64,000 nucleotides of DNA from an uncultured Candidatus Saccharibacteria bacterium (GTDB lineage: Bacteria > Patescibacteriota > Doudnabacteria > UBA920): NCBI GenBank assembly GCA_964384035.1, contig CAYLIB010000006.1, positions 13,336 to 77,335 of the forward strand, given 5' to 3'. Numbering within the stretch: the first letter of the stretch is position 1; every line of letters begins with the position of its first letter. The notes below the pieces were generated by a model, which made no database searches, was not told the origin of the DNA, and was given only the letters and a program-made list of their open reading frames with translations. The position numbers were made by a program, and so were the translations under genes. Of the stretch, positions 35,779 through 58,668 are shown in pieces.

Positions 35779-38515
35779 TTTGTATTGTTTTAGGCCATTC
35801 TTGTACCATTATTAATTCGCTCCTTACTAGTCCTCGCTCAAATAGTAACCCCCAAATATACTCGGTTACAAATGGCATGAAAGGGTGAAGTATTTTTAAG
35901 ATATGTATTAACACATGAAGTAAAATCCTCTTTGTATTGTTAGCTAATTCTGGATTTTGCATTTGCACTTTACTTGTCTCTATATAAATATCTGCAAATT
36001 CATGCCAGGTGAATTGGTATATTTCCTGTGCCGCTTCGTGTAGCCTAAAACCTTCTAGGTGAGAAGTAACTGCAGTAATAGTCATATCTAGTTTTCGAAG
36101 TATCTCTGTATCCGCCTCAGTTTTTACCTCCCACTTCCAATCACTCTCCTCTACATTCTGCATAATGAACCTGGAAATATTCCAAAGTTTGTTTCCAAAA
36201 TGCTTCATACCTTTTATTTTATCCTCGGCGAGAGGTATATCTGTTCCAGCAGACGTGGAAAATACTAAAGCAAAACGTAGTGCGTCAGTTCCATAGGTGT
36301 CTATAACACCAAGTGGATCAATAATGTTTCCTTTGCTCTTGCTCATTTTCTGTCTATCCTTGTCTCTTACAAGACCATGTAAATATACTGTTCGGAAAGG
36401 AACTTCACCTACGTGATAAGTCGACATAAGGATCATACGTGCAACCCAGAAGAACAGAATATCGTAACCAGTTTCCAGTACATCTGTAGGGTGAAAAGTT
36501 TCTAGATCAAAAGTTTCATTAGGCCAGCCAAGAGTTGAGAACGTCCAAAGGCCTGAACTAAACCAAGTGTCTAAAGTATCAGGATCGCGGATCAAGTTTT
36601 CACCCGTAGGCTCTTTCAGTAAAAAATAAGATACAACAGAACCATTTGGTCTAATTCCTACGCGCTCTCTTGCCGCTACAAATTCATCTTTCTTTTTACC
36701 CTCTAGAACCGCTTGTATGACTATATTTGTAATGTTGTGGCCAGCAATAAGAATAGGGCCTTCCGTCTCTTGTTTTAAGGTTTCTATAAATTTTAAAACT
36801 CTAACTTCTAAGGATTCTAATTTCTCACCAGTTCCTCTCTTTATTGCTTCAGCAAAAGGGTTGGGGCACTCCTCGAGGCTTAAATTTCCTACATCACCTT
36901 TATCAAACTCCCTCATATCATCGTTAAAGACTATATCATTTTCATTAAGTCCTATAATTTCGGCAACAATCTTAGCAGTTTGAGTAGATCGAATTAAGCT
37001 AGATGCATAAATTTTCTTAATACCTCTACCCTTTAATTTCTCTCCTAATTCTCTCGCCTGATCCTCACCCTTTTTGGTTAGGGGAGTGTCCCCGGAGGCA
37101 ATTCCAGAAGCATTGCTCTCACTCTCTCCGTGTCTAGCAAAAATAATCTCCACCTCTTTTGGTAAATGAATATTTTTTTGCTCGTCATACCAAGCAGGAA
37201 TTTGGTGTCCAAATAATATTTGTCTAGAAATACACCAATCCCTAAGGTTATCTATCCAGTGGAAATATATTTTCTTAAAGTGATCAGGAATTATTTCAAT
37301 CTGCCCACTCTCCACCACATGTCTCATGCAGTGTTTAAGGCTAACTAATTCTCCATCTTTTATTCCTGGTATCCCGTCTCCTTTAAATCGAAATGGCTTA
37401 TTCACATCTATAAACCACTGCTCACGAATTTGAGGTTCTATTATTCCACCTCCACGAGAATTAGTAGCAATTCTGTGGTTATAATTCTCGTCTATTTTTT
37501 CTACTAAACCTTTAGCTTGTAGCTTTTCTATAAGCATTGGTCTAGCTTTCTTAATGTGTTGGCCCGCAAGTTCTCCTGCTATTGGGAGTAATATACCTTT
37601 AAGATCGATAATCTGCTCTATATCCAAACCGTGTCTCTGGGCAATTTCATAGTCCACCGCGTCATGCGCTGGGGTAATGGTCATTACACCCGTACCAAAT
37701 TCAGGGTCTGCAGCTGTATCTTTAATAATCGTTGCGGTAACTTTGCCATTTATCCATTCAACTTCTATTTGTTGTCCATGTTTGTATTCAGCGTAACGAG
37801 CATCTTCAGGATGCATTACTACATACTTATCTCCAAACTTAGTTTCGGGTCTGGCTGTACCAATGGTAAATGGTCCATACTTTAAATAGTAAAAACTAGT
37901 TGTTTCTTCTTTCCATTCTATTTCATCGTCGCTCACATTTGTTTGTAGTTTCGGGTCCCAGTTTACAAGTCGGTTACCACGGTAAATAAGACCATCCTCA
38001 TACATTCTCTTAAAAGCAGTATTTACCGCTGATACTTTCTGTTCGTCAAGGGTATAAGAAAGCCTACTCCAATCTGTAGAAGCACCCATTCTTTTTATTT
38101 GTGACAAAATAGTACCCTGCGAAGATAGGGCATAGTCATTCACCAATTTCACAAACTCTTCTCTAGAAAAGTCGTGTCGTGTTTTGCCTTCTTTTTTATA
38201 CAAATCAGTTTCTACTTTTGCTTGAGTAGCTATCGCCGCTGAATCTGTGCCAGGTACCCATAAGGTCTTGTAACCTTGCATTCTCCTGAAACGGATTAGT
38301 ATATCCTGAATTGTTAAAAACAATGCATGTCCAATATGCAAAACACCAGTCACATTTGGTGGAGGCATGGTAATGGTATAAGTAGGCGCATTATCAGGCT
38401 TGCCCTCCATAGCTTCAGCGGAGGAGGGATTAAAATACCCTGAGTCTTCCCATTTTTTATAAATATCTGCCTCTGCAGAAGAGGCATCGTATGCTTTCGG
38501 TAATTCTTGGTTCAT
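35768..38515 (-). CDS. valS: valyl-tRNA synthetase carrying an inserted histidine-phosphatase (RHG) domain
   Basis: PPPNVTGVLHIGHA (HIGH), WCISRQ, KMSKSKGN. About 180 aa between IPAWY and DTLDTWFSS hold ARHGESESN...IYASSLIRS...AGHNIT (PGAM/histidine phosphatase signature). Confidence 0.88.
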   Translation of the reverse strand: MNQELPKAYDASSAEADIYKKWEDSGYFNPSSAEAMEGKPDNAPTYTITMPPPNVTGVLHIGHALFLTIQDILIRFRRMQGYKTLWVPGTDSAAIATQAKVETDLYKKEGKTRHDFSREEFVKLVNDYALSSQGTILSQIKRMGASTDWSRLSYTLDEQKVSAVNTAFKRMYEDGLIYRGNRLVNWDPKLQTNVSDDEIEWKEETTSFYYLKYGPFTIGTARPETKFGDKYVVMHPEDARYAEYKHGQQIEVEWINGKVTATIIKDTAADPEFGTGVMTITPAHDAVDYEIAQRHGLDIEQIIDLKGILLPIAGELAGQHIKKARPMLIEKLQAKGLVEKIDENYNHRIATNSRGGGIIEPQIREQWFIDVNKPFRFKGDGIPGIKDGELVSLKHCMRHVVESGQIEIIPDHFKKIYFHWIDNLRDWCISRQILFGHQIPAWYDEQKNIHLPKEVEIIFARHGESESNASGIASGDTPLTKKGEDQARELGEKLKGRGIKKIYASSLIRSTQTAKIVAEIIGLNENDIVFNDDMREFDKGDVGNLSLEECPNPFAEAIKRGTGEKLESLEVRVLKFIETLKQETEGPILIAGHNITNIVIQAVLEGKKKDEFVAARERVGIRPNGSVVSYFLLKEPTGENLIRDPDTLDTWFSSGLWTFSTLGWPNETFDLETFHPTDVLETGYDILFFWVARMILMSTYHVGEVPFRTVYLHGLVRDKDRQKMSKSKGNIIDPLGVIDTYGTDALRFALVFSTSAGTDIPLAEDKIKGMKHFGNKLWNISRFIMQNVEESDWKWEVKTEADTEILRKLDMTITAVTSHLEGFRLHEAAQEIYQFTWHEFADIYIETSKVQMQNPELANNTKRILLHVLIHILKILHPFMPFVTEYIWGLLFERGLVRSELIMVQEWPKTIQNEK

Positions 38516-45105: not shown

Positions 45106-46278
45106 TTATAATATCCTATATCTATGCATTTTATAAATTACAAGTATAGAAAGTAGTCCAAAGAAAGATCCAGCAACCACAAAAGCATAACTAAAAGAGA
45201 AGTGGTCATTCAGATAACCTATTAAAGGGCCAACTACAGCGAAGACTAAGCGCATTATTAGCCCAGACAAAGAGAGTATTGTTGCTCGAATATCTTCCGG
45301 TGTTTTTTTATTTATATAGTCTCTTAGAACTGGCATGTTAAGCCCTCTAACAAAGTAGGGTATAAACATTATTCCTATTCCAGCTAAACCCGGAGTATAT
45401 GCCAACCCAAAAAAACTAATAGCTAGAAGTGGCATTAATAGAATCAAAGTTTGTTTCCTGCCAAGTTTTCTTTCAATTTTCTCCGCGCTAGCAGAAGTAA
45501 TAGCCGACGCAAACTGTAAAGTCGCCCAAATAATTCCAAACCAAGCAATTGCTATTCCCGCAGCCTCAAACCTAGGTTGAATGAACCAAATAAAAGTAAT
45601 ACCAGCAGATGAAACCACGGCTGAGTAAATGGTTAACCATTTAATTTCAGTATGGTCTACAAGTCCAAACTTAATGGTTTTAATGAGTGTTTTGAATTTA
45701 CCCGCAGTTGTTTCCATTTTCTTCCTAGTCGGTTCTACAAGAGTAAGTGCTACAGGTACAGCGCAAAGTGCTGCCAATGCCTGAATGTAAAGAGGGAAGC
45801 GAAGGCTAACAAGAGCCAAAAATCCACCAAGCACGCTCGCAGTTCCCTCACTCAAATTCCAAGTAGTGTTCATCCTACCTTCTCGTTTAGTGTAGGTTCC
45901 AGTTTCCCCAATTTGAGCTAGCGTGTCGTAAAGCATTGCCGAGTCCGCACCAGACATAAGTGCTGTACCCAGAGCTAATAGTATTTCCGCTAAAAGGAAG
46001 CTTCCAAAGTTATAAGATACGGAATAAAAACCCCACGCAGAAGCCCAAACCAGCATTCCTAAGACGATAGCAAGTTTTCTGCCATAAGTGTCTGCAATCA
46101 ATCCCGTAGGGATCTCTAGGATAGCAAGTGCAATCCCAAAACAAGCCTGAAGCACTAGCACTTTCCCCACACTGAGACCGTTACTCTGGTAAAAAGGCAC
46201 TAAAATAGGCACCGAAAGTAAAAACCACCTAAGCGCCTGAATCACATACAGCTTCCAAATATTATTTTTGATATTCAT
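45106..46278 (-). CDS. MFS transporter
   Basis: 390 aa, 12 predicted TM helices. MFS-like loop motif GLIADTYGRK. Confidence 0.75.
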   Translation of the reverse strand: MNIKNNIWKLYVIQALRWFLLSVPILVPFYQSNGLSVGKVLVLQACFGIALAILEIPTGLIADTYGRKLAIVLGMLVWASAWGFYSVSYNFGSFLLAEILLALGTALMSGADSAMLYDTLAQIGETGTYTKREGRMNTTWNLSEGTASVLGGFLALVSLRFPLYIQALAALCAVPVALTLVEPTRKKMETTAGKFKTLIKTIKFGLVDHTEIKWLTIYSAVVSSAGITFIWFIQPRFEAAGIAIAWFGIIWATLQFASAITSASAEKIERKLGRKQTLILLMPLLAISFFGLAYTPGLAGIGIMFIPYFVRGLNMPVLRDYINKKTPEDIRATILSLSGLIMRLVFAVVGPLIGYLNDHFSFSYAFVVAGSFFGLLSILVIYKMHRYRIL

Positions 46279-46347
46279 ATACTATATAGTAACAAATACA
46301 GAAACGAAGGGGTGGTGCTGTATGTCTAAAAGCATAGAACCTCAAAG

Positions 46348-46376
46348 TTTACCTACTCCACATATACTGCTAATAT
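46348..46376 (+). promoter_or_regulatory. candidate promoter (TTTACC-17-TAATAT) driving the riboswitch-like leader
   Basis: -35-like 46348-46353, 17-nt spacer, -10 TAATAT 46371-46376. Confidence 0.3.
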
Positions 46377-46384
46377 AAATTACT

Positions 46385-46551
46385 TACAAAAATCAAAAAC
46401 TTCCCCCAGGGAATTCCGGTAAGATCCCGGAGCTGTGCCGCAACCGTAATGTCCGCCTTAGGCGGAACAAGTCGGGTCGCTGAGAGAAGTTAAACAGTTT
46501 CCCGAGCAGGACAAATTTAAAAAAACTTCTCGGGAAAGGGGAGTTTTTTTA
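46385..46551 (+). promoter_or_regulatory. cobalamin-riboswitch-like leader with terminator/antiterminator expression platform
   Basis: cAGGGAAuuCCGGUAAGAUCCCGGAGCUGuGCCGCAACCGUAA matches the Cbl core (GGGAA...GGUGnAAnUCC...GCnG.CCCGCnACUGUAA). P6-like hairpin UCCGCC-UUAG-GGCGGA. Degenerate B12-box-like AAGUCGGG. Mutually exclusive pairings gagaagtt/aacttctc versus tttcccgag/ctcgggaaa. GGGGAG RBS then T7 then ATG. Confidence 0.5.
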
Positions 46552-46552
46552 A

Positions 46553-48697
46553 ATGCAAACCACTGAAACACAATCTACTCAAGCAGAATACCTAGACCCT
46601 GAAAACCCCGAAGGTGTTGTATTTAATCCTGACGATTTTCACAAGCCAGAAGCTATAAGTCCAGAAAAAACCAGCCAGCAGGAAACTCCCGATCAGATAG
46701 TAAACCTGGCTGGTAATTCTCTTGGTCAGGAGTACTCTATATTACACCTTCCTGATTCTAATTTCAGCGGAAGGTACGACGAAGAAACAGACGACATTCA
46801 CTATGAACACAACAACACTACTCTGAAGACTTTTAATATTGGAGGTAAAGAAGACTATAATACGCTCATTCGAGAACTAATTACAGAAGGAGTTGTTTTT
46901 AGAAAATCTGAAGACGAGAAATACGCAACGGCGTGGGTATACGATTTTAATTCAAAAGAGGTGAGGAGTTATGTGCTCAAAGCAGCGCCAAAACCAAAAT
47001 TTGAATATAGTTTTGGTAACGAGGATGACTACACAGCAAACTCAGAAACGGGCGAAGAGCAAATTACAATAAACCTGACTGAACTATTTAAAACAGAGGA
47101 TTCAAATGCTTTGCAAACAGAACAAAAAGCAGAGAGTTTTTTTTCGGTTGCAAGTCTAGCATCTATATTTACCAATAAAGAAAATGAAACCGCTTCTCCA
47201 CAAGAAACAAGTACAGTAGATACTGTTAAGAATATTTTTATTAATACATCAAGGGTAGAAGCTGAGAAGGAGCCAGAAAAAAATTGGCAAAAACTAATCC
47301 AGATAATTTACGAAGAACCAAAATCCATGGAGGCTACTTCTGCCAGAATAGAAGGACTTGAAGAAGATAAGGCAGTGGTTAAGCAAGAGGTAAGGAAAAC
47401 GATTCTTACGCAGTCTGTTGAACCAAAAGAAGTTGTATTAAGAAGTCCTCGTACTGATTCGTCAGAGAAAGATGTTCCCGTTGAGATAAATCATGTGTAT
47501 CCAGAAATAGTAGAATTTGTACATTCCCAAAAAGTGGAATCTGTACAACCACAAACCCCAGAGTCTTTTGAAACTGTCATAGGAGAAGAGGCAGATGGTA
47601 TAGAGGAAGTAGAAAGCATGGTAAACAAAGAGGAAAGTCATCTTAAAAATGAGGTTATTCAGCAAAGGGCAGATATCCAAACACCAGAAACTTTTGTGGG
47701 TACAATATCAGAACCAGTAATCGAGATAGCTTCAGAAGTACAAGACCCCGTCAATTCCACGAAAGTCTCTCTCAAGGAGGGCCCCTCTATTAATCGGACA
47801 CCGGAACTCAAGGAAGATTTTACAGTGGATATTGTGCACAATTTAAAACAAGAAGTTGTGGAATCCGTCAGAAGAATAGAAAGTACCCAAAGCCAATTAG
47901 TTATTCGTCCCGAGGTGCTTACAGAAGAGATTTCGCAGGGAGATAAATTAGAAGAGTCGGTCAAATTGCCAGATCCAAGAAAAATAGAAGATGTTGTGCT
48001 CAAAAAGGAAGTCCTTAATGCTGTTGTAGTAGACGAAATAGTAGAGCTTAAAACATCAGAGCCGACAGAATTACAAAAAACAGAATTTGAACAACCAACT
48101 GAAACCATCGTACAGCAAGCCTTAGAGCAATCCTTTGAAGAAATGACTATCGCAGAACAAAAGCTTACTGAAAAAGATGAAAAATATACGGTTCTGGAAG
48201 TTCTAGAACAAGAAGTAAAACCCCCAATCGAAGCTTTATCCAAAGATTTAAGTCTTAAAGGTGTTACTAAGGTAATCATTCCGGAAGCCAGTACAACCCT
48301 AAATCAAATAAAGCCAAATCAAATAAAAATAGAGGAGGGCTTAGAAAAGCGAACTGAATCATTACACCCTCTTCAAGTCCACAAAGAAGAAGTTATTGTT
48401 AAGCAAGAAGATCTGTTAAGTAAAAGCAATCAAGATATTAAATCTCCTAAGTCAGAAGGAATTACTCAAGAGATATTTATAGGCAGTACGGTTTCGCTCC
48501 AGGTCGAAGACAAGCCCAAAAAAATACCAGAAGTTAATTTAGCAAAAGAAAAAAAACCCGATGTTTCGAGGACTGTCTATATACAAGAAAATTTCCGAAG
48601 AAGATTTTCAGGGGTGGGGGATGTCCAGCAAGAGTCATTTACCACAGTAAATTCTCCGGTGCTAGACTCAAATCTAGTAGCAGAAGTAAGTTCCTAA
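46553..48697 (+). CDS. hyper-acidic low-complexity (E/V/Q/T-rich) protein, predicted intrinsically disordered
   Basis: 714 aa. No TM helix or signal peptide. Long E/K/V/Q-rich degenerate repeats. First gene after the riboswitch-like leader. Confidence 0.6.
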   Translation: MQTTETQSTQAEYLDPENPEGVVFNPDDFHKPEAISPEKTSQQETPDQIVNLAGNSLGQEYSILHLPDSNFSGRYDEETDDIHYEHNNTTLKTFNIGGKEDYNTLIRELITEGVVFRKSEDEKYATAWVYDFNSKEVRSYVLKAAPKPKFEYSFGNEDDYTANSETGEEQITINLTELFKTEDSNALQTEQKAESFFSVASLASIFTNKENETASPQETSTVDTVKNIFINTSRVEAEKEPEKNWQKLIQIIYEEPKSMEATSARIEGLEEDKAVVKQEVRKTILTQSVEPKEVVLRSPRTDSSEKDVPVEINHVYPEIVEFVHSQKVESVQPQTPESFETVIGEEADGIEEVESMVNKEESHLKNEVIQQRADIQTPETFVGTISEPVIEIASEVQDPVNSTKVSLKEGPSINRTPELKEDFTVDIVHNLKQEVVESVRRIESTQSQLVIRPEVLTEEISQGDKLEESVKLPDPRKIEDVVLKKEVLNAVVVDEIVELKTSEPTELQKTEFEQPTETIVQQALEQSFEEMTIAEQKLTEKDEKYTVLEVLEQEVKPPIEALSKDLSLKGVTKVIIPEASTTLNQIKPNQIKIEEGLEKRTESLHPLQVHKEEVIVKQEDLLSKSNQDIKSPKSEGITQEIFIGSTVSLQVEDKPKKIPEVNLAKEKKPDVSRTVYIQENFRRRFSGVGDVQQESFTTVNSPVLDSNLVAEVSS

Positions 48698-48700
48698 AAA

Positions 48701-50368
48701 ATGATCACAGAGTTCGAAAAATTTACATATTATGACCTAAGGTTAGAAGCCGAAAGTGGACGACTTCCTAAAATTACTGGAAGAGAAGACGAGGTCTCGC
48801 GTTTGCTCAGAATAATTTCCAGTACCCTGGGTAGGCACAGTATTCTTGTTGCCGAAAGTGGGGTAGGGAAGAGTTCTATTATTTTCGGTTTAGCCGAACG
48901 TATTGCTCGTACTGGTTGGAGAAAAGGTTTGCCTGTGGCTATGCTTGAACCAAACTCCGCATCTCGTATTGGTCTGCTGAGAGAGGCAGGTTTAGGTCCG
49001 TATTTAAGAGCATTTGAATCGCTGACGAGGGGGGTAATTGTCCTCGATGGTTTTGGCGAATGGGTTTATGAGCAACCCAACTCTCTTTCAAATTGGAACA
49101 GTCTCATAAAACCCCTTCTAAATCTAGATGAAGTTTCTCTCATACTCGCTATGCAACCCAAAGAGTTAGAGTGGCTCAAGGTTCATAAAAGTCATTTTGT
49201 CGCACGGTTTCAAATTGTGAACATCGATCCTCTCCCTATGAAAGATTCACGAACAGTATTAATAAATACTGCTAAGAGGCTAGAGAATGAAACCCTAAAA
49301 ATAGAGGCAAGCGCTATTGAAGCAGCTTTAAATTTACCCGAAAGATTTAAAAGGTTGGGTCCATTACCTAAGTCAGGTATGGCTCTTTTGGACGAAGCGG
49401 TTACAGAGTTAAGGATTAATCCGCTATCTTTTAAATTTAATAAGGTGAATCATGAAATCATAGAAAGAGTAACAGCAAGTAAACTTCATTTACCCTTAGC
49501 AAAAGTAGCAGCAGAGGATATTGCGCGTATAAAAAGTTTGCCCGAGGTTTTAAAGAAGAGTGTTCTTGGTCAAGATAAGGCTATTTCAGAAATAGCTGGG
49601 TTCATTCAGAGATCCAAGTTAGGTTTAAGAAACCCAGATAGACCCCTGGCATCATTCTTGTTACTAGGACCCTCTGGTGTAGGTAAGACCGAAACAGCTA
49701 AGACTCTATCTGACATAGTTTTCGGTGGTACGGGTTTTCTAAGACTCGATATGTCAGAGTTCGCGGCAGAACATAGTGTAGCGAGGTTAATTGGTTCACC
49801 TCCTGGTTATGTAGGGTATGATGTTGGGGGTCAGTTAACAACTCATCTTGAATCACACCCGCATTCCTTAATACTTTTAGATGAAATAGAGAAAGCTCAT
49901 CCAAAAATTTTCGACATATTCCTTCAGGTTCTAGATGATGGACGCCTAACATCAAGTCAGGGAGTCGTAATAGACGCAACCCAATGTATATTTATAGCCA
50001 CCTCTAACCTAGCAGTGGATGAAATCCTAAAAGTAGAGAATTCGGATACAGCTGAATACTTAAGTACTAATATTATTCCTGAGCTTCAAAAGTTCCTTAG
50101 GACGGAATTCTTGAATCGTTTCGATTCTTTAGTTGTTTTTAAGAAACTAAGCGAAGAATCACTAGTTCAGATTGCCTTAAAGGAAATTACTAAAATGGAA
50201 GATCGGTTTAAGAATAAGGGTATAAAATTTAAAGTCGATCCTGTTGTCTTAAAGTCAGTAGTTGCCTCGCAGTCAGACCCACGTTTTGGGGCTCGTCCAA
50301 TAAAACGTCTAGTAGAGAAAATTTGCGAAACAGCAGTAGTAGATAGTTTATTAAATTCAAATCAATGA
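48701..50368 (+). CDS. Clp/Hsp100-family double-AAA+ protein lacking N- and M-domains, with degenerate D1
   Basis: D1: GESGVGKSS Walker A, but Walker B is VIVLDGFGEW (Glu to Gly). D2 intact: GPSGVGKTE, LILLDEIEKAH, sensor ATSN, GARPIKR. Strong similarity to ClpA/ClpB D2 (SVARLIGSPPGYVGY, QVLDDGRLT). Confidence 0.85.
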   Translation: MITEFEKFTYYDLRLEAESGRLPKITGREDEVSRLLRIISSTLGRHSILVAESGVGKSSIIFGLAERIARTGWRKGLPVAMLEPNSASRIGLLREAGLGPYLRAFESLTRGVIVLDGFGEWVYEQPNSLSNWNSLIKPLLNLDEVSLILAMQPKELEWLKVHKSHFVARFQIVNIDPLPMKDSRTVLINTAKRLENETLKIEASAIEAALNLPERFKRLGPLPKSGMALLDEAVTELRINPLSFKFNKVNHEIIERVTASKLHLPLAKVAAEDIARIKSLPEVLKKSVLGQDKAISEIAGFIQRSKLGLRNPDRPLASFLLLGPSGVGKTETAKTLSDIVFGGTGFLRLDMSEFAAEHSVARLIGSPPGYVGYDVGGQLTTHLESHPHSLILLDEIEKAHPKIFDIFLQVLDDGRLTSSQGVVIDATQCIFIATSNLAVDEILKVENSDTAEYLSTNIIPELQKFLRTEFLNRFDSLVVFKKLSEESLVQIALKEITKMEDRFKNKGIKFKVDPVVLKSVVASQSDPRFGARPIKRLVEKICETAVVDSLLNSNQ

Positions 50369-50595
50369 AGATTCAAGAGCAAATAGAGAAAGAGTTCAAA
50401 GAAGCTCTGTTAAACATAAAACCGTATGTAAGTTTAAAGTGGTTACAAAAGGTAGAAGCAAGATTTAAATCTCATAAAGAAGAGCTGGATTTAATAGAAG
50501 CAGGTGAAGAAATACGTAGACATAAGAAATCACAATTCTCAGAGATTCTACCCCCTCAGTATTTTGAGCAAATATTTATGAAAAAAAATGATTGA
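50365..50595 (+). CDS. hypothetical small helical protein
   Basis: 76 aa. Start overlaps the upstream stop (ATGA). Stop overlaps the next gene's start. Confidence 0.5.
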   Translation: MKIQEQIEKEFKEALLNIKPYVSLKWLQKVEARFKSHKEELDLIEAGEEIRRHKKSQFSEILPPQYFEQIFMKKND

Positions 50596-51904
50596 AAAAT
50601 CTGTACTCATCGGAGAAAACGTTTTTAGAAATAATACCACCCCTATTCGCTATAAAGACGCAGACAGGCTTAGGCATATGTATATGGTAGGCAAAACAGG
50701 GTCCGGGAAATCCAGTCTCTTTTTGCAAATGTGCTTACAAGACATATTAGCTTTCAAAGGGGTCTGCTTCATAGACCCCCACGGCGATGCGATTAACTGG
50801 CTTCTTTCAAGAATTCCAAAAGGAAGACTGGAAGACGTTGTGGTTATTAAACCTGGAGATGTAAATTTCCCAGTAGGGCTAAATTTACTAGAAGTCTCCG
50901 CAGGAGAAAATAGTAGTTTTTTGGTGAGTGAACTCATCAATATTTTTTATCGTCTGTTCGACCCAGAAAAAACCGGTATCATAGGTCCCCAATTCGAACA
51001 CTGGCTCAGAAACGGAGCGCTTACAGTAATGGCAGACCCAAACGGAGGGACGCTTTTAGAAATTCCCAAACTCTTTTCCGACAAGAAGTTTGAAAGCTAC
51101 AAAAGACAGTTCATAAAAGATCCGCTCGTTATGGAATTTTGGCAATCCCAGATGTCTAAGACGTCAGATTTTCACCGAAGCGAAATGTTAAATTACTTTA
51201 CTTCAAAGTTTGGCCAGTTTATGGGAGTGGAAACCTGCAGGAACATAGTTGGTCAAACCAACAGCACTATAAATTTTCAGGAAATTATAAATAAAGAAAA
51301 AATATTACTAGTTGACCTAAGCAAAGGCTCACTTGGTGAGCTCACGAGTAAATTTTTAGGCTTAGTACTTCTTGCAAAGCTCCAGTCCGCCGTGCTAAGT
51401 AGAGCACAGATAGGGGAGGGTGAAAGAATTCCCTTTTATTTATACGTAGACGAATTCCAAAATTTTACCACCGACACATTTCTTTCCATGCTGGCCGAGT
51501 CTAGAAAATATGGCCTAGCTGTTCATGTTACCAATCAGTATATTACCCAGTTACCCGAAGCTGTCCGCAAGGCAGTTCTAGCTAGCGTGGGTACGACTCT
51601 CTCTTTCCAAGTCGGTGCCGAGGATGCGGAGATTCTTTTACCGGAATTTTCACCTTTCTCGCTAGAAGACCTAACCAACTTACCAGCAAGAAATTTTCTA
51701 CTAAGACTAATGGTGGACGGTAGGACCACAGAAGCTTTCTCCGGCCAGACCATTAGCCACGACACCCTGCTTTCAAAGCATCTTGCTTTCAGTGAAGAAG
51801 AAACCGTCCCACAAGAACTAGTTCTAGAAGCATCAAGATTAATGCACTCCACTCCTGTAGCCTTGGTGCAAAAACAAATCCTCTCCCGTCTAGGTATAAA
51901 TTAG
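50588..51904 (+). CDS. AAA_10/DUF87-type P-loop ATPase (TraG/VirD4/HerA-FtsK superfamily)
   Basis: Walker A MVGKTGSGKSS followed by FIDPHGD. Walker B-like FYLYVDEFQNF with RKYGLAVHVTNQYITQL (TraG-D_C-like block). No TM segment. Confidence 0.75.
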   Translation: MIEKSVLIGENVFRNNTTPIRYKDADRLRHMYMVGKTGSGKSSLFLQMCLQDILAFKGVCFIDPHGDAINWLLSRIPKGRLEDVVVIKPGDVNFPVGLNLLEVSAGENSSFLVSELINIFYRLFDPEKTGIIGPQFEHWLRNGALTVMADPNGGTLLEIPKLFSDKKFESYKRQFIKDPLVMEFWQSQMSKTSDFHRSEMLNYFTSKFGQFMGVETCRNIVGQTNSTINFQEIINKEKILLVDLSKGSLGELTSKFLGLVLLAKLQSAVLSRAQIGEGERIPFYLYVDEFQNFTTDTFLSMLAESRKYGLAVHVTNQYITQLPEAVRKAVLASVGTTLSFQVGAEDAEILLPEFSPFSLEDLTNLPARNFLLRLMVDGRTTEAFSGQTISHDTLLSKHLAFSEEETVPQELVLEASRLMHSTPVALVQKQILSRLGIN

Positions 51905-51957: not shown

Positions 51958-52128
51958 ATGGGTTTCGATCTATCATGGACTCATGTGGAAAATCAACTTC
52001 TGCGTGAGTTGGTCAAACAATACTTGGGCTATCTATTGCTCGGACTCGTAGGAGTTGTTGTGGGGTTATTACTAGTAACCCTAGTAAAGCTCTGTTTATG
52101 GCTTTATGCTTTCAACTTAATGTGCTAA
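51958..52128 (+). CDS. 56-aa hydrophobic peptide (candidate modified-peptide precursor or small membrane protein), not in ORF track
   Basis: AAGGAGG RBS 6 nt upstream. MGFDLSWTHVENQLLRELVKQYLG followed by Leu/Val/Gly-rich core ending LMC. Own terminator immediately downstream. Confidence 0.5.
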   Translation: MGFDLSWTHVENQLLRELVKQYLGYLLLGLVGVVVGLLLVTLVKLCLWLYAFNLMC

Positions 52129-52147
52129 ACAAAGCACTTTTTTATTT
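52122..52147 (+). terminator. attenuator-like terminator directly after the small peptide gene
   Basis: gtgct-aaacaa-agcac followed by ttttttattt. Overlaps the stop codon. Confidence 0.5.
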
Positions 52148-52215: not shown

Positions 52216-53586
52216 ATGAAGATAGCGCTCATTATGTCGCACGGGAAAGTCCATGGTAAAAACGGAATTTTCCAAAAAGCTCTGCGTTACGCTCCGCTCA
52301 CTCTACCTACACTGGCAGCTCTCGTACCTGAAGAGCTTAAAGCGGAAATAACCATCTATGACGAAGGCGTCGAAGATGTAAGCATAGACAAAATTGATGC
52401 AGACATTGTCGGGCTCTCATGTATAACGGGGATAGCTTACCATGTCTACGAAACCTCTGCTCGGCTAAGACAGCGAGGAATTAAAACCGTAATTGGTGGA
52501 TTGCACGCAACACTCTGTCCGACAGAAGCAATGAATTACGCAGACTGTGTTATAACCGGTTTTGCAGAACGAACGTGGCCACAAGCTTTAAGAGATTTTA
52601 GTAATGGTCAGCTTAAAAGTCGTTACGACCAAGAGCAGCCATTCAAATTCGAAGGTATACCAATACCAAGGCGTGATCTCTTAAAGAAAAACGCCTACAT
52701 CACTATGAATACAATTCAGGCAACCAGAGGGTGCTACCAAAAATGCGACTTCTGTGTGGTGCCCAATGCATGGGGGAGTTTCTGGTCCAGACCCGTTCGC
52801 GAAGTCATCGAAGAAATCGAAAAGTTAGACAAAGGTCCATTTCTGTTTCTCGATCTTTCACCAAACGAAGATCCCGAGTACCTAAAGAAGCTCTACAAAG
52901 AACTCATCCCTTTGAAACGCATTTGGGGTGGTCTTGCGACCATCGAAATCTCACGAGATAAAGAACTTCTGAATCTCGCGAATAAAAGTGGTTGTCGCGG
53001 TCTGCTCATTGGTTTCGAATCAGTAAACCAAGAGACTCTTCGTTTGATGGGTAAAGGCAAGCTTAATGTAGCCGACCAGTACTATGAAGACGTAAAGCGT
53101 CTACACGGCGCAGGTATCGGAATTAATGGTTGTTTTGTTTCGGGGCATGACGGAGATGACGAAAGTTGTTTTGAAAGAACGTTAGAATTCGTGGATCGTG
53201 CAAAAATCGACCTACCTCGATTTTCAATCGTAACGCCTTTTCCAGGGACGGCACTTTATAACAAACTCAAGAGTCAAAATCGTTTGCTAATGGATGGTGT
53301 TTCTGGGTGGCAACATTACAACTCGCAAGAAGTAGTCTTTAAGCCCATTGCCATGACACCCGACCAACTACTCGCAGGTCACCAGTGGCTCTGGCGGGAG
53401 GCATATCGTCTTCCTGTTATAGCCCGTAGGTTCTTAGGTTCACCGGCGCTTCACACCGTAATGGCTTTAAAGCACGTTCTGCCAGCCAATATGGCGTACA
53501 GGTTCTTTGCTGACAAATTACCAGAACTAATGATGACCACCTGCGAAACCCCCTCCACCTCCCTCCCCCTGCTCCTGTCCCAGTAG
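52216..53586 (+). CDS. class B (N-terminal B12-binding domain) radical SAM enzyme, paralog 1
   Basis: B12-binding-like N-domain. CYQKCDFC (Cx3Cx2C). Shared blocks LIGFESVN and TPFPGT with the other two paralogs. Confidence 0.85.
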   Translation: MKIALIMSHGKVHGKNGIFQKALRYAPLTLPTLAALVPEELKAEITIYDEGVEDVSIDKIDADIVGLSCITGIAYHVYETSARLRQRGIKTVIGGLHATLCPTEAMNYADCVITGFAERTWPQALRDFSNGQLKSRYDQEQPFKFEGIPIPRRDLLKKNAYITMNTIQATRGCYQKCDFCVVPNAWGSFWSRPVREVIEEIEKLDKGPFLFLDLSPNEDPEYLKKLYKELIPLKRIWGGLATIEISRDKELLNLANKSGCRGLLIGFESVNQETLRLMGKGKLNVADQYYEDVKRLHGAGIGINGCFVSGHDGDDESCFERTLEFVDRAKIDLPRFSIVTPFPGTALYNKLKSQNRLLMDGVSGWQHYNSQEVVFKPIAMTPDQLLAGHQWLWREAYRLPVIARRFLGSPALHTVMALKHVLPANMAYRFFADKLPELMMTTCETPSTSLPLLLSQ

Positions 53587-53721
53587 TATTGAAATTAAGC
53601 ATAGTGAGGGGTGGCGCGGAGGCGGATCCCTTAAGTAGCGCGCAGTGCATCCGAGCACTACTTAAGGTGCCGCAGTGACAGGACCCCGGTGTATTAGAAA
53701 TGGATGTGAAATGGAGATTAG

Positions 53722-55107
53722 ATGAGAGATTCATTTAAAATAACGCTTATCGTTCCGCACGTTGGTCGTAAAGACCCAACCAACTTAAAAGAGTATGTAA
53801 GAACTTGGCAAATGCCGAGTCTCACTATGCCCATCCTCGCGGGTCTCACCCCAAAAGACGTCGAGATTAAATTCTTCGACGAACGCGTCGAGTTCATAGA
53901 CTTCGAAGACAAGACTGATCTCGTAGCCATCACTGTCGAAACATTCACTGCCAAGCGCGCCTACGAAATTTCTGCAATCTACAAAGCACGCGGCACACCT
54001 GTCGTTATGGGTGGCTACCACGCTATGCTAAAACCCGCCGAAGTTTCGCACTTCACAGACGCGTGCATTATAGGTTTTGCAGAAAGTATCTGGCCACAGG
54101 TAGTTAAAGATGCACGCAGTGGAAAGCTACAATCCGTCTACGAGAGAAGCTCTTCAAGCCCCGTAACTTTCGGTATGCCGGACCGCAGAATTTTAGGTAA
54201 GAAAAATTATTTACCTTTGGTGCTCTCAGAAACCGGCCGCGGTTGTCCGCACTCCTGCGGTTTTTGCAGTATTACCTCTGCAACTAAAGCAACCTACTGG
54301 CCTCGGCCCGTAGACGAAGTAGTAAAAGATTTGGCGGAAGCGAAATCTATCGGCATTGGAAGTGACGTCTTCCTCATAGACGACAACATCGTCGGTAATC
54401 CCCGTTACGCTAAGGAACTTTTTACCGCGTTAAAAGATTTGCGTATCCGCTGGTTCAGTCAGGGTACGCTAACTATGGCGCGCGACAAAGAACTTCTAAA
54501 GCTAATGGCCGAAAGTGGATGTATGGGAGTACTAATTGGCTTCGAGTCTGTAAACGAAAAAACTCTTAAGAGCTTCGGAAAAGATTTTAATATTCCGCTC
54601 TTAAGAGATATGAAAGAATCCGTAAAAAGAATCCACGACTTTGGAATCTGCATTTACGGCACTTACATTTTCGGTTACGACGAAAGCCTGGAAGACATTC
54701 TCGCGACCGCACATTCGGCCGAAGACCTAGAGCTTTTTATGGTCGCCTTCAACCATATGATTCCTTTCCCAGGGACTAGGTTGTTTAAGGAACTAGAGGA
54801 TTCTGGGCAACTTACCGACACCGAGTGGTACCTCGATCCCAGTTATCGTTTTGGCCAAACACCCTTTACACCAAAACTCCTCTCACCTAGAGAACTTCAC
54901 GACGCCTGTATTCAAGCAAGGAAGCATTTCTACCGCTATACAAGTATTCTGAAGCGCAGTAGTAACTGGAAGGGGAACCTAACCACTCCCAGCAAAGCTC
55001 TTCGCTATTTCATAATCAACTACCTCCTTCACCGCGAGGTAGGGGAGAAAGATGGCCTACCCTTAGGTAATCTGCCAGCAAGACCGCAATTACTGGCTCC
55101 CGCGTAG
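53722..55107 (+). CDS. class B radical SAM enzyme, paralog 2
   Basis: GRGCPHSCGFCSI (Cx3Cx2C). N-terminal B12-binding-like domain. LIGFESVNEKTL, IPFPGTRLF. Confidence 0.85.
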   Translation: MRDSFKITLIVPHVGRKDPTNLKEYVRTWQMPSLTMPILAGLTPKDVEIKFFDERVEFIDFEDKTDLVAITVETFTAKRAYEISAIYKARGTPVVMGGYHAMLKPAEVSHFTDACIIGFAESIWPQVVKDARSGKLQSVYERSSSSPVTFGMPDRRILGKKNYLPLVLSETGRGCPHSCGFCSITSATKATYWPRPVDEVVKDLAEAKSIGIGSDVFLIDDNIVGNPRYAKELFTALKDLRIRWFSQGTLTMARDKELLKLMAESGCMGVLIGFESVNEKTLKSFGKDFNIPLLRDMKESVKRIHDFGICIYGTYIFGYDESLEDILATAHSAEDLELFMVAFNHMIPFPGTRLFKELEDSGQLTDTEWYLDPSYRFGQTPFTPKLLSPRELHDACIQARKHFYRYTSILKRSSNWKGNLTTPSKALRYFIINYLLHREVGEKDGLPLGNLPARPQLLAPA

Positions 55108-55131
55108 CCAAAACTACGCGGTTTTTATTTT
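55100..55131 (+). terminator. intrinsic terminator after rSAM paralog 2
   Basis: ccgcgtag-ccaaaa-ctacgcgg followed by tttttatttt. Confidence 0.55.
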
Positions 55132-55180
55132 CCCAAATAATCTATATAATATGTGTCATCGAAATAAGGAGGAAATATTT

Positions 55181-56296
55181 ATGTCCAAATATGCTTTTGA
55201 AATTGCGGATGAATCTCACGAAAGTGGGTTAAGAGAAATTTTGAGACAAACAGAAATGCCTGGTAATATCTCACTCTCATTTAGGAGAGAGCCAAATTTT
55301 TTCATTGCTGAAAAAACCGGCAACATCTCAAGTGATGTAGTGGCTGTTAGGGATCTCGATAAAAATAAGCTGGTAGGAGTAGGTGCAAGATCAATACGAA
55401 AAAACTATATAAGAGGTAAAGCAAGTAACATCGGGTACCTAAGTGCTTTAAGAGGGTTACCTGAAATCTTAGGCGGAACGCTTTTGGTCAGAGGTTTTCG
55501 TTACCTAAAAAATCTTCATAAAAAGGGAGAAGTTCCTTTCTACTACACGACCATTTTAGATGAAAATTCCTGGGCAAAGGAAATGCTCACTAGTAAGCGT
55601 TGCGGACTCCCAGTGTACGAAGATCAGGGTATATTAGTAACGCATATGCTACCTCTATATAAGAGACGTTGGAAGCAAAATAATACTCCAGGATTAAATA
55701 TAGTAAGAGTCGGTAGAGTGCCTTACCTCATTCGGCAGGTGTACGAAGTAGTTAACGAATTCAATCGTTACTATGATTACTCGGCTGTAGTGAGTTTTGA
55801 TTCTCTTAGGTCACCTGAACAGTTTTATCCAGGGTTCTCTACAGAAAATCTATTCGCAGTATTCAGGGACGGTCTCATTACTGCTACGCTCGGAGTGTGG
55901 GATCAATCCAATTTCAAGCAAACCGTAGTAACTGACTACAAGGGGTTCTTGAGTTATTTAGCCCCTTTGTCTAGTTTAGGCTCAAAACTCGGTCTAATGC
56001 CGGAATTGCCGAAGATCGGCGGGTCATTTCCTATTCTCTACGCCTGCTTTGTTACTTTAAAACAGGGATATGAGGCGGATATGGCAGTTTTACTGTCCGA
56101 GGTATTGCGACTATATTCAAATCAAGGTTATTATTATTTGCTTGCTGGGAGTCCAAAAGGCAGTCCTGTTGAAAAAATATTCGAATCACAAGAATCCTTT
56201 AGGATCACCAGTACGCTTTACAGGGTTTACTGGGAAGAAGACGCTATCTTTCTTCCAAAAACTCTGGTTCCATATCCGGAAATTGCAACGCTTTAA
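55181..56296 (+). CDS. hypothetical protein (possible GNAT-like fold, weak)
   Basis: AAGGAGG RBS before ATG 55181 (ORF track 55151). 371 aa, no confident motif. Confidence 0.55.
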   Translation: MSKYAFEIADESHESGLREILRQTEMPGNISLSFRREPNFFIAEKTGNISSDVVAVRDLDKNKLVGVGARSIRKNYIRGKASNIGYLSALRGLPEILGGTLLVRGFRYLKNLHKKGEVPFYYTTILDENSWAKEMLTSKRCGLPVYEDQGILVTHMLPLYKRRWKQNNTPGLNIVRVGRVPYLIRQVYEVVNEFNRYYDYSAVVSFDSLRSPEQFYPGFSTENLFAVFRDGLITATLGVWDQSNFKQTVVTDYKGFLSYLAPLSSLGSKLGLMPELPKIGGSFPILYACFVTLKQGYEADMAVLLSEVLRLYSNQGYYYLLAGSPKGSPVEKIFESQESFRITSTLYRVYWEEDAIFLPKTLVPYPEIATL

Positions 56297-56318
56297 ACTT
56301 AATAGGAGGCTACTGAAA

Positions 56319-57035
56319 ATGGCAATAGAGCATGCACGAGTTCTTACTTCGTCACTCTTGAGGTGCGATAGAAGAAAAATGTTCAGTCTCATGGAAGAGT
56401 GCTATTTGGGTATGAGCTGGGTTGAATTCAATCGGGACCTCGCCGAAAAAGACGAAGTAATGATACTCAGCGAAGAAGGGGAGATAGTTGGATTCTCTAC
56501 ATTGGTCACTTTTGACTTTTTAGTCGGTGAACAAATTTGTACAGCCCTTTTTTCTGGTGATACCGTCGTTAGTAAAGATAAGCGAGTCAATATTGGTTTT
56601 GCAAAGGAAATTGTTTCCTACTTCTATCAGAACATAGACTTGGGAAAAAATACTCCTGTCTATTGGACTCTCATAAGCAAAGGATGGAGAACTTTCAGAA
56701 TTCTGCCTTTTCTCTTCAGAGAGTTCTATCCAAACCCCTTTGCGAAAATTGAGAATTCGAGGCTAAAAGAAGTCAGGGATGCATTCGGAAAACACAAATA
56801 CCCGAAGTACTATAAGGAGAGAACCGGTTTAATCCAGTTTCCTACACCAGTTCAAAGACTTAAACCGCGGTCAGATGAAGCAGAATGCAATAGGGATGAT
56901 CCGTATGCAAAGTTCTTCTTCGAAAAAAACCCTGGATACTTAAACGGAGATGAATTAGTTTGTGTAGCAGAAATAAGTATCGAAAACTTCACCCGCTCCA
57001 CCATTAAACTCTTAGGCGATAAATTGCATAAGTAG
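56319..57035 (+). CDS. hypothetical protein (possible GNAT-like acyltransferase, weak)
   Basis: AGGAGG RBS before ATG 56319. ORF track 56070 is a spurious upstream extension overlapping the previous gene. VMILSEEGEIVGFSTL...VNIGFAKEI pattern is GNAT-like. Confidence 0.5.
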   Translation: MAIEHARVLTSSLLRCDRRKMFSLMEECYLGMSWVEFNRDLAEKDEVMILSEEGEIVGFSTLVTFDFLVGEQICTALFSGDTVVSKDKRVNIGFAKEIVSYFYQNIDLGKNTPVYWTLISKGWRTFRILPFLFREFYPNPFAKIENSRLKEVRDAFGKHKYPKYYKERTGLIQFPTPVQRLKPRSDEAECNRDDPYAKFFFEKNPGYLNGDELVCVAEISIENFTRSTIKLLGDKLHK

Positions 57036-57039
57036 AGAT

Positions 57040-58668
57040 ATGAGAAAAATAACGCACTCCGCTATCTTTGTAAGCTGTTATTCAGCGTACAAATCCTGGG
57101 TAGCTAAAACCGCCTCTGTTGAAAATTCCCAGCAGAGGCTTTTATTTTCTATCCTAAATAAAAACAGAAATACCGTTTTTGGAAAAAAGTTTGGTTTTGA
57201 AAAAATACAGAGCATTAAACACTTCCAAGATCAAGTATTCCCACAAGTTTATGAAGACCTTGAGAGTTATATCAAGCGCATGCTTTCAGGAGAAATAGAA
57301 GTGCTTACCGGCGAGAGGGTGCTTCTCTTTGAGCCCACAAGTGGATCAGTATCTGCCTGCAAATACATACCTTATACAAAAGGTTTGCGACAAGAATTTC
57401 AAGCTGGTATAAAGCCCTGGTTATATCTTCTTTATCGTGACTACCCGTCTATCCGCAGTGGCGTACATTACTGGTCTATAAGTCCAAGAGTAACTAGAGG
57501 GCTCACCCAAGGAGGTATTCCCATTGGCTTCGAGAAAGATACCGAATATTTAGGATTACTCTCGCGTGTATTTCTAGATAGAGTTATGGCTTTACCAGGT
57601 GAGGTCACGCATGTTCCTCACATCGAGAACTTTCGCTACCTAACATTGTTATTCCTGCTATCGCATAAGGATCTGACTTTTATATCCCTATGGAATCCCA
57701 CCTTCTTAAAAATTCTTCTCGAAGCCCTCGTTGACTTTAGAGAAAGTTTCATAGAAGACATAAAGTCAGGTTCGTTAAACCCACCTGTAAAGTTATCAAA
57801 AACTCTTAAGGATTATTTTCTTTGGAAATTAAACTTTTGTCGTAGAAGGTCTGTCGAAGTAGTATCTCTGCTTCGTGAGAATCAAGATCCTTATTCCTTA
57901 GCAGGCGCACTCTGGCCTAAGCTATCCCTGATTAGCTGCTGGTCAGACGCAAATGCAAAGGATCAAGCAATAAAGCTTCAAAGAAAATTTCCTTACACAC
58001 CTTTTCAACCAAAGGGTTTAATTTCTACCGAAAGTTTCGCAACATTCCCATATCCTGGTTTAGAAGGAGGAGTGCTTTCTCTAGGTTCCCATTTTTTCGA
58101 ATTTGAGAAGAATGGAAAATACTTCTTGGCCCATGAGATCAGTCTAGGTGAGACTTACTCGTTAGTTGTTACTACAAGCGGGGGACTATATCGTTACCAA
58201 ACAAAAGACCAAGTTAAAATTACGGGGTTTCATAATCAGTGCCCCTCTATGGTTTTTGTTGGTAAAGAAGATTCCATAGTAGATCTAGTTGGTGAAAAAC
58301 TTTCTGAGGGCTTCCTGGTAAAAGTTATGGATGAATTTTTAAATAAATATTCCATAGAACCAGAATTTTGGATGGTCTCGCCGAACCCCATTGGTAACGG
58401 GTATTGTTTGTTTATCAAATCCACTGAAATTCTTCCCGTGAACCTCGCTCTAGAGATAGACATTAAGCTTCGTGGAAGTTTTCACTATTCTTATGCAAGA
58501 ACTTTGGGACAGCTTGAAGAGTTCAAGGTGGTAGCATTGGATAACAATATCAATCCTTCGAAACTCTATCTTGAAACCTGTACGAAACTAGGACAAAAAT
58601 TAGGAGATATCAAACCCAGAAGGCTTCATCAAAGTAATGTATGGTATAAAGTATTTAGTGCAACCTAA
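57040..58668 (+). CDS. GH3-family (acyl-acid amido synthetase-like) adenylating enzyme
   Basis: N-terminal pattern FGKKFGFEKIQSIKHFQDQVFPQVYEDLESYIKRMLSGEIEVLTGERVLLFEPTSGSVSACKYIPYT matches the bacterial GH3 (PF03321) N-region (FGKKY..I.T...FQ..VP...YED..PYI.R...GE...L......F..SSGTT...K.IP). Confidence 0.6.
   Translation: MRKITHSAIFVSCYSAYKSWVAKTASVENSQQRLLFSILNKNRNTVFGKKFGFEKIQSIKHFQDQVFPQVYEDLESYIKRMLSGEIEVLTGERVLLFEPTSGSVSACKYIPYTKGLRQEFQAGIKPWLYLLYRDYPSIRSGVHYWSISPRVTRGLTQGGIPIGFEKDTEYLGLLSRVFLDRVMALPGEVTHVPHIENFRYLTLLFLLSHKDLTFISLWNPTFLKILLEALVDFRESFIEDIKSGSLNPPVKLSKTLKDYFLWKLNFCRRRSVEVVSLLRENQDPYSLAGALWPKLSLISCWSDANAKDQAIKLQRKFPYTPFQPKGLISTESFATFPYPGLEGGVLSLGSHFFEFEKNGKYFLAHEISLGETYSLVVTTSGGLYRYQTKDQVKITGFHNQCPSMVFVGKEDSIVDLVGEKLSEGFLVKVMDEFLNKYSIEPEFWMVSPNPIGNGYCLFIKSTEILPVNLALEIDIKLRGSFHYSYARTLGQLEEFKVVALDNNINPSKLYLETCTKLGQKLGDIKPRRLHQSNVWYKVFSAT

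Follow-up and report, generated by a model that had tools for sequence, protein, structure and literature searches.

We describe a leader RNA in a 64,000-nucleotide (nt) stretch of the genome of an uncultured Candidatus Saccharibacteria bacterium (contig CAYLIB010000006.1, positions 13,336 to 77,335), which we refer to as the window. The leader occupies the intergenic region between a divergent gene for a major facilitator superfamily (MFS) transporter (45106-46278, -) and a 714-amino-acid (aa) open reading frame (ORF; 46553-48697, +), the first gene of a four-gene operon, and its aptamer and expression platform together span 46398-46554 (+). Position numbers are those of the window, and numbers such as L003 or L124 denote the other loci compared in this analysis. 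An initial annotation of the window had proposed a cobalamin (B12) riboswitch, perhaps short or atypical, in front of a non-transporter operon. This proposal is borne out: a covariance model built from orthologous leaders with the window left out recovers the leader with a high score, and covariation among the leaders is strong. We consider it quite probable that the leader acts in cis as a functional, B12-responsive OFF switch.

The RNA itself adds a further example to a known class: it resembles RF01482, belongs to class II, and comes from a lineage in which loop L4 habitually receives hairpin inserts. What looks new is the conserved cargo, an orphan module of VirD4-like and ClpB-like genes found in the Candidate Phyla Radiation (CPR), an operon that the conserved leader would tie to B12 supply. 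Literature searches covering Patescibacteria, CPR, and Saccharibacteria returned no description of this element and no link between cobalamin riboswitches and CPR.

Orthologous leaders, model search, and covariation

Orthologous leaders were located through protein homologues of the last gene of the operon (gene 4), not through RNA. More than 2,200 proteins are homologous to that of gene 4, at 55-65% identity, and belong, where the source names them, to Patescibacteria (Magasanikbacteria, Wolfebacteria, Doudnabacteria, Colwellbacteria, Paceibacterota). Nine homologues were traced to contigs, and the DNA was read for eight of these. The traced loci share a gene order in which a large first gene of 670-1,020 aa, with no Pfam match, is followed by a ClpB-like AAA+ gene of ~555 aa, an ORF of 75-105 aa, and a VirD4-like gene. 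A leader stands before the operon in 12 of 12 readable loci (the window, L003, L006, L124, L125, L127, L129-L134), and 11 of the 12 have the four-gene order in common. L006, which comes from the RNA pattern scan described below, differs: its 615-aa first gene is unrelated, and its VirD4-like gene is longer, 40% identical, and has an apparent N-terminal membrane segment. With its compensatory changes, the leader spans at least four named CPR lineages (Saccharibacteria, Magasanikbacteria, Doudnabacteria, and Wolfebacteria).

From the eight leaders found solely through protein (L124, L125, L127, L129, L130, L131, L132, L133), we built a covariance model, R1, from which the window was excluded. 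L4 hairpin inserts were removed from the alignment by hand, and P1, P4, P5, a 3-bp helix, part of P6, and P13 were annotated. Run against the 64-kb window, R1 produces a single match, at 46401-46513 (+), with 94.4 bits and E=1.5e-21; the training sequences themselves score 87-109 bits, a span that includes this value. The same model also finds riboswitches certified by Rfam as RF00174 or RF01689 (L085, L032, L077, L073, L019), some of which sit upstream of cobT- and nrdD-type genes. Among Rfam families, the best match is RF01482 (AdoCbl), which covers 46386-46519 from end to end of the model (1-149) with 45.3 bits and E=2.7e-7, in a separate E-value-threshold search of 46250-46650 (401 nt). 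Neither this match nor that of R1 is plausibly a product of chance. L130, an orthologue with no L4 insert, reaches 67.0 bits with RF01482, above the gathering score of 50. We assign the window leader, on sequence and predicted structure, to the cobalamin riboswitch clan CL00101.

Covariation on homologous leaders, which the initial annotation had named as a check, supports P1, P4, P5, the 3-bp helix (P3/6), and P13. In the eight independent leaders, 93.5% of alignment cells are paired and 16 of 27 pairs are compensatory, a level reached by 0 of 500 column shuffles; slid controls give 31-53%. A second alignment of 11 leaders adds to the eight the window, L003, and, from Wolfebacteria, the more distant L134; it includes the pseudoknot. 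Here 96.7% of cells are paired and 16 of 25 pairs are compensatory, including one change in P5 and one in the proposed kissing interaction between loops L5 and L13. Compensatory changes occur in eight of nine P1 pairs and three of five P4 pairs; in P5, a U-A pair becomes A-U in L134. All four forms are seen at the middle pair in the 3-bp helix: U-A (6 leaders), C-G (3), A-U (1), and G-C (1). Because MAFFT could not align P6 in register, this element was judged by per-sequence folding, which gives a hairpin in every orthologue, differing in sequence and length.

The proposed L5-L13 kiss consists of U436-A508, G437-C507, and C438-G506 (UGC/GCA; last three digits of the positions) and can be paired in 11 of 11 leaders. 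Ten of 11 operon leaders have identical UCCCGAGCAGGA, L5 UGCCG, and L13 CGAGCA, so that most leaders are uninformative on the kiss. The remaining leader, L134, combines L5 UACCG with L13 CGAGUA, by which the G437-C507 pair becomes A-U, a compensatory change. Outside the operon set, L037 has AGCCG with CGAGCU, a second compensatory change. We regard the kiss as likely on this comparison, and as under-sampled.

Relatives were also found by RNA pattern. Scanning metagenome contigs with the degenerate core pattern GCCGCNACYGTRA...AAGTCRGG gave many chance matches in GC-rich coding DNA and 19 riboswitch-like loci; at 13 of these, RF00174 or RF01482 attains its Rfam gathering score. The pattern leaves two positions free, Y and R, which correspond to the middle pair of the 3-bp helix and are able to pair in 19 of 19 loci (U-A or C-G). 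In many of the 19, including certified ones before cobT-like and nrdD genes, a small hairpin with the loop CGAGCA follows. Seven short Cbl-type riboswitches (L006, L038, L043, L048, L055, L078, L083) precede a first ORF of 290-615 aa with no Pfam match; L006 is the exception among them in having a VirD4-like gene downstream.

Most orthologues carry a hairpin insert of 13 to ~190 nt in L4, and the L4 of the window is intact at 7 nt. Hairpins of 13-30 nt are inserted in L124, L125, L127, L129, L131, L134, and L006, and such inserts are also common in Rfam-certified members, e.g., L073 and L111. Larger ones are present in L003 (a ~160-nt near-perfect palindrome inside L4, 3715-3875), L132 (~125 nt of inverted repeats, about 1752-1880), and L133 (a ~190-nt insert, about 1870-2030). 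These large inserts may be either insertions resembling miniature inverted-repeat transposable elements or tolerated expansions. On the L003 leader, Rfam reports plant microRNA (miRNA) models only, a consequence of the palindrome inserted in L4.

Leader anatomy and the proposed switch

All features in this section lie on the forward strand. A candidate promoter, TTTACC-17 nt spacer-TAATAT (46348-46376), was read from the sequence; it has 8 of 12 consensus matches and is below the scanner threshold. Transcription may start near 46383-46386. The orthologous leaders have clear TTGACA-N17-TAnAAT promoters at the equivalent relative position. The aptamer opens with the 5' strand of P1, AACUUCCCCCAG (46398-46409), which pairs with CUGAGAGAAGUU (46480-46491) over 12 positions as 10 pairs and two C-A mismatches; both mismatches are C-G pairs in L003. 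P1 runs straight into the junction GGGAA (46409-46413), invariant in 11 of 11 aligned leaders and in agreement with the RF01482 and RF00174 consensus. P4 and L4 follow (UUCCGG-UAAGAUC-CCGGA, 46414-46431; U414-A431 and CCGG/CCGG) with a 7-nt, T-loop-like L4, UAAGAUC. The core string CUGUGCCGCAACCGUAA (46433-46449) takes in P5 (46434-46442; U434-A442 and G435-C441), with the loop L5 UGCCG at 46436-46440, and the CCG strand (46444-46446) of the 3-bp helix that closes the P6 arm, partnered by CGG at 46473-46475. P6 is a simple hairpin, UGUCCGCC-UUA-GGCGGAACA (46450-46469), of 8 bp with a 3-nt loop and one bulged A (core UCCGCC-UUAG-GGCGGA).

Joining P6 to the 3' strand of P1 is J6/3, AAGUCGGGUCG (46469-46479), a B12-box-like segment in agreement with the RF01482 consensus AAGUCAGGUC; its AG.C.G is invariant across leaders, and AAGUCGGG (46469-46476) lies within it. 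Downstream, the P13/L13 hairpin UUUCC-CGAGCA-GGAcAA (46498-46514) has the core UCC-CGAGCA-GGA at 46500-46511 and the loop L13, CGAGCA, at 46503-46508. Aligned to RF01482 and R1, the window has the conserved nucleotides GGGAA, the GGU...AUC(C) T-loop in L4, GCCGC.AC.GUAA, and AAGUC.GG, and these junction and loop columns are invariant or nearly so across the 11 leaders. P2 is absent from the window, as is the P7-P11 extension of P6; since it lacks both and its best Rfam family is the short RF01482, the RNA has a short class-II architecture.

In the minimum-free-energy fold, the expression platform ends in a hairpin (46515-46554) whose core pairs AAAAAAACUUCUC (46519-46531) with GGGGAGUUUUUUU (46538-46550) around the loop GGGAAA and can extend to 17 bp. 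This hairpin takes in the Shine-Dalgarno (SD) sequence GGGGAG (46538-46543), the U7 run (46544-46550), and the first two bases of the AUG of gene 1 (ATG at 46553). Three helices vie for 46519-46537. Helix (i) pairs UUUCCCGAG (46498-46506), which is the P13 5' strand plus part of L13, with the switching segment CUCGGGAAA (46529-46537); helix (ii) pairs GAGAAGUU (46484-46491), from the P1 3' strand, with AACUUCUC (46524-46531); and helix (iii) is the terminal hairpin, with AAAAAAACUUCUC paired to GGGGAGUUUUUUU. The switching segment thus finds its partner either in UUUCCCGAG, as an anti-terminator, or inside the terminator hairpin. The fold with P13 and helix (iii) has an energy of -19.3 kcal/mol, that with helix (i) enforced -18.5 kcal/mol, and that with helix (ii) enforced -10.8 kcal/mol, so that terminator and anti-terminator states differ by less than 1 kcal/mol. 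A transcript folded to 46537 adopts helix (i) at -13.8 kcal/mol, and none of 500 shuffles equals the helix (i) duplex (-15.8 kcal/mol). In L003, L127, L131, and L132 as well, the L13 region is significantly complementary to the 5' half of the terminator. A hairpin with a U-run stands directly before gene 1 in nine of nine orthologues tested, and the stem is compensatory between the window and L003 (ACUUCUC/GGGGAGU vs GCUUCUC/GAGAAGC). The predicted platform is of the intrinsic-terminator type, a hairpin and U-run exclusive with an anti-terminator. L006, L134, and L038 have no second hairpin; in these leaders AGGA, the 3' strand of P13, serves as the SD at a distance of 5-10 nt from the AUG. 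A simple terminator scanner did not list the hairpin at 46515/19-46550/54. Rfam matches to the ylbH leader (22.5 bits) and to several miRNA models cover the terminator hairpin only, and we take them as chance matches to a long stem with A/U flanks.

All strings that the initial annotation quoted are present where it placed them, and its assignments of the P6 hairpin, the B12-box-like AAGUCGGG, and the ribosome-binding site (RBS) with its U-tract hold; the U7 run and the ATG are separated by two nt (AA), not three. It had also described two mutually exclusive helices as the switch. Both are present, but the logic was incomplete, as both are anti-terminators that compete with a third helix at 46515-46554.

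In the mechanism that we propose, B12 binding would stabilize P1 and the L5-L13 kiss. UUUCCCGAG and GAGAAGUU would then be unavailable as partners and CUCGGGAAA would be left free, so that AAAAAAACUUCUC could pair with GGGGAGUUUUUUU; the resulting hairpin and U-run would terminate transcription and bury the SD and start codon, turning the operon OFF. When B12 is absent, nascent UUUCCCGAG would pair with the CUCGGGAAA/AACUUCUC segment once this is made, the terminator or sequestering hairpin could not form, and the operon would be ON; in the lineage of the window, the P1 3' strand would pair with the CUCGGGAAA/AACUUCUC segment as well. The logic common to the different leaders would be that expression is off whenever something keeps L13 and P13 in position. 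We infer B12 as the ligand and OFF as the direction of the switch, and likewise whether it works through termination or through translational control.

Known families, competing explanations, and implications

RF01482 is the nearest of the known families; we take it to be class Cbl-IIb, first described in the eut locus of Enterococcus and Listeria. The window shares with it a long P1, the junction GGAAG, a T-loop on P4, a very small P5, the CUG/CAG helix, an unextended P6, the AAGUCAGGUC segment, and, at the 3' side, a hairpin whose loop contains CGAG. It differs in scoring 4.7 bits below the gathering score, in the L5 sequence UGCCG, in the 13 to ~190-nt L4 insert of most CPR members, and in a cargo that is not eut. 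It also differs in its predicted action in cis on a terminator and RBS directly before an ORF, unlike a trans-acting small RNA (sRNA). With RF00174 (class I; E. coli btuB, T. tengcongensis) the window has in common GGGAA, the GGU..AUCC T-loop, GCCGC.AC.GUAA, AGUCAGG, and, probably, the logic of the L5-L13 kissing loop; certified members have identical CUGUGCCGCAACUGUAA and CGAGCA strings, and R1 detects certified members. However, the window has neither P2 nor P7-P11, and it lacks the ...GACCUGCC 3' end of the B12 box. RF01689 (AdoCbl-II or AdoCbl-variant), presumably the marine, env8-type class Cbl-IIa, is likewise a short class-II aptamer in which the loop of a regulatory hairpin kisses L5 and the 3' strand of that hairpin holds the RBS, as arranged in L006, L134, and L038, and R1 matches an RF01689-certified example at L077 6389-6447. 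Yet RF01689 is not the best-scoring clan member for either the window or L130, and the RBS of the window lies not in P13 but in a second hairpin, with a relay between the L13 region and the 5' half of the terminator.

Several observations weigh against reading the leader as a B12-responsive cis switch. With Rfam 15 at gathering thresholds, the whole 64-kb window has zero matches: RF01482 stays 4.7 bits under its score of 50, and RF00174 is below its cut-off of 31.5 bits. The kiss is supported among operon leaders by one compensatory event, plus L037 outside that set, and both L074 and L114 have a mismatch at the terminal kiss pair. Four of nine orthologues (L124, L125, L129, L130) show no significant complementarity of the L13 region to the terminator. 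The terminator stem is weak, with 3 G-C, 1 A-U, and 2 G-U pairs plus seven A-U pairs in which the U-run is paired to an A-run, and termination may be inefficient. None of the four operon proteins falls in a known family of B12 synthesis, B12 transport, or B12-independent isozymes, so that the identity of the ligand cannot be cross-checked from the cargo, and sequence inspection finds no obvious membrane segment in any of the four. The initial annotation had held that the absence of an Rfam match above the gathering threshold would speak against a cobalamin riboswitch, which is formally the result obtained (45.3 bits with RF01482 vs 50). That threshold is too strict here, because L130 scores 67.0 bits, the leave-out model gives the window 94.4 bits, and covariation is strong. 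Rfam misses the window and seven of eight operon leaders because the lineage departs slightly from the seed and usually has an L4 insert.

If the low Rfam score is instead read as a sign of a changed ligand, the RNA would be a cobalamin-riboswitch fold that recognizes another corrinoid form, or a non-corrinoid ligand suited to the cargo. Variant riboswitch classes with altered ligands are known in other families, the cargo is unrelated to known B12 genes, most orthologues are under the Rfam cut-offs along with the window, and L5 is UGCCG vs the RF00174 consensus CCCCCG. We nonetheless judge this unlikely, as the same L5 UGCCG and L13 CGAGCA occur in Rfam-certified riboswitches before cobT-like (L073, L111) and nrdD (L077) genes, all junction nucleotides common to RF01482 and RF00174 are kept, and L130 reaches 67 bits with RF01482. 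To our knowledge, no non-corrinoid variant of the cobalamin-riboswitch fold has been reported.

A decayed remnant, or a constitutive attenuator or terminator leader that senses nothing, would also explain a sub-threshold Rfam score, the two C-A mismatches in P1, and the ~160-nt palindrome inside L4 of L003. Against such decay, the leader is kept with compensatory changes in at least four named CPR lineages and 12 of 12 loci, the L4 of the window is intact (7 nt) with a score as high as those of the training sequences, and L4 hairpin inserts are common in the certified L073 and L111; we give this explanation very little weight. We give marginally less to a trans-acting riboswitch sRNA like EutX or Rli55, in which B12-dependent termination would set the length of a regulatory RNA. 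The founding members of RF01482, in the eut loci of Enterococcus and Listeria, do act in trans, RF01482 is the best Rfam family for the window, and a terminator lies 3' of the aptamer. Here, however, the terminator overlaps the SD and start codon of gene 1, which starts 2 nt past the U-run, and in L006, L134, and L038 the P13 3' strand AGGA is the SD, 5-10 nt from the AUG, a standard cis arrangement.

The preferred reading, a cis-acting B12 OFF switch, gives what would be the first regulatory handle found on a conserved CPR operon that ends in an orphan, VirD4-like homologue of type IV coupling proteins (T4CPs). If B12 is the ligand, expression of the operon should respond to B12, which is directly testable in cultivated Saccharibacteria. 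More tentatively, and with the balance of our judgment somewhat against it, the Patescibacteria-wide ATPase module may belong to the core of the B12 regulon in these host-dependent bacteria, a role so far unrecognized, and scarcity of B12 would switch it on. If so, the riboswitch would read B12 as a measure of host supply, and the module could obtain corrinoid from the host or compensate for a stalled B12-dependent enzyme, for example, in the supply of deoxynucleotides or DNA when a B12-dependent ribonucleotide reductase (RNR) has no cofactor. The latter would fit the nrdR, RNR, and cobO neighbors of the operon in L133. Surveys based on gathering scores probably undercount riboswitches of Patescibacteria, because Rfam cut-offs miss most CPR class-II operon leaders (one of eight tested passed), mainly through L4 inserts. 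Reviews of Patescibacteria genetics seek riboswitches as expression tools (PMC11665869), and the window leader is a candidate for such use: natural, compact, putatively ligand-repressed, and native to Patescibacteria.

Operon genes and genomic neighborhood

The operon extends over 46553-51904 (+). Gene 1 (46553-48697, +) encodes the 714-aa protein, which is acidic, of low complexity, and by composition looks largely disordered; it has no Pfam, NCBIfam, or PADLOC match. Its sole homologue among 5.8 billion proteins, at 63% identity, is at the locus L003 of a Ca. Saccharibacteria metagenome-assembled genome. A contig scan for gene 1 gave one locus, and residues 1-215, searched exhaustively with HMMER, returned two weak, repeat-type matches and no real remote relatives; the N-terminus is weakly similar to gene 1 of L124. 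In L124, the public start of gene 1 (175) falls inside the riboswitch, after P1 and before L13 and the terminator, and the true start is likely the ATG at 253, directly after the terminator U-run. Gene 2 (48701-50368, +) encodes a 555-aa, ClpB/ClpA/ClpV-like AAA+ ATPase and is second in all loci with the canonical four-gene order. Gene 3 (50365-50595, +) encodes a small 76-aa protein, in the place taken by a 75-105-aa ORF elsewhere. Gene 4 (50588-51904, +) encodes, by homology, a soluble VirD4/TraD/HerA-like ATPase of 438 aa, a T4CP homologue.

An anti-phage defense operon was considered and rejected, the PADLOC matches of gene 2 (PDC-M37B, DolB) and gene 4 (mad8, HerA) coming from generic AAA+ and HerA-FtsK ATPase domains. 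Identity of 55-65% with fixed synteny across CPR phyla points to a core function rather than a mobile defense island. A previous survey (PMC12102498) found that 2,918 Patescibacteria genomes contain 5,713 VirD4-like T4CP homologues, most of them distant from virB4, and suggested that these had been exapted for another function. Gene 4 is one of these orphan proteins, with the difference that it closes a four-gene operon that is conserved and stands under a cobalamin-type riboswitch; in a term search, "riboswitch", "ClpB", "AAA+", and "operon" were all absent from that paper.

Among the seven short Cbl-type riboswitches from the pattern scan, the first proteins of L043 and L048 have a common C-terminal CxxC...CxxC zinc ribbon and end in DF[VI]AGLL. 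Kinship among the seven first proteins and gene 1, for which motifs had been picked by eye, was rejected, as BLASTP, phmmer, and a family hidden Markov model found no significant similarity. In L078 (1276-3729, -), a riboswitch of the window type is followed by a 437-aa protein with a C-terminal zinc ribbon and then by two ORFs that, read from their N-termini only, may be nrdR and nrdJ. B12-related neighbors recur in L133 (8537-12833), where the genes after the operon are nrdR, one for an RNR large subunit that has a TSCPD domain and that we read as class II, and one of the CobA/CobO/BtuR family. A gene for a small protein with a PaaX_M domain lies directly upstream of the riboswitch and operon, on the same strand, in L125 (1734-2225), L130 (2070-2591), and the P0092 locus.

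The window is chromosomal (rpoB, rpoC, valS, uvrB, murE, and a penicillin-binding protein gene), with 40% G+C. The initial annotation had taken three B12-binding radical S-adenosylmethionine (SAM) genes downstream as fitting a B12-sensing RNA. The three genes are real (52216-53586, 53722-55107, 58746-60095), but they are not a conserved partner, since the cluster is absent beside the operon in the other loci read; that place belongs to the four-gene operon directly downstream of the leader. Between operon and cluster lies a gap of 312 nt, in which there is a weak terminator-like site (52122-52137). With a GH3-family amido synthetase gene (57040-58668), an ATP-grasp gene (60939-62126, -), and several ORFs with no Pfam match, the radical SAM genes form a cluster (52216-62126) that looks like a small natural-product or modification cluster.

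Elsewhere in the window, the valyl-tRNA synthetase (35768-38515, -) has an architecture unusual for ValS, with a histidine-phosphatase domain inserted at residues ~455-616. The best matches of the insert are to the phosphoglycerate mutase and alpha-ribazole phosphatase (CobC) family, all below curated cut-offs, and in a B12 context the resemblance to CobC is intriguing. Other RNA elements were seen in the loci compared. The L130 contig, which holds an orthologous operon, has a group I intron at 14227-14532 (RF00028, 72.8 bits). On the short metagenome contig L005, a LOOT RNA (RF03000, 84.2 bits; 1046-1166) lies ~420 nt upstream of an RF01482-type riboswitch (1584-1709).

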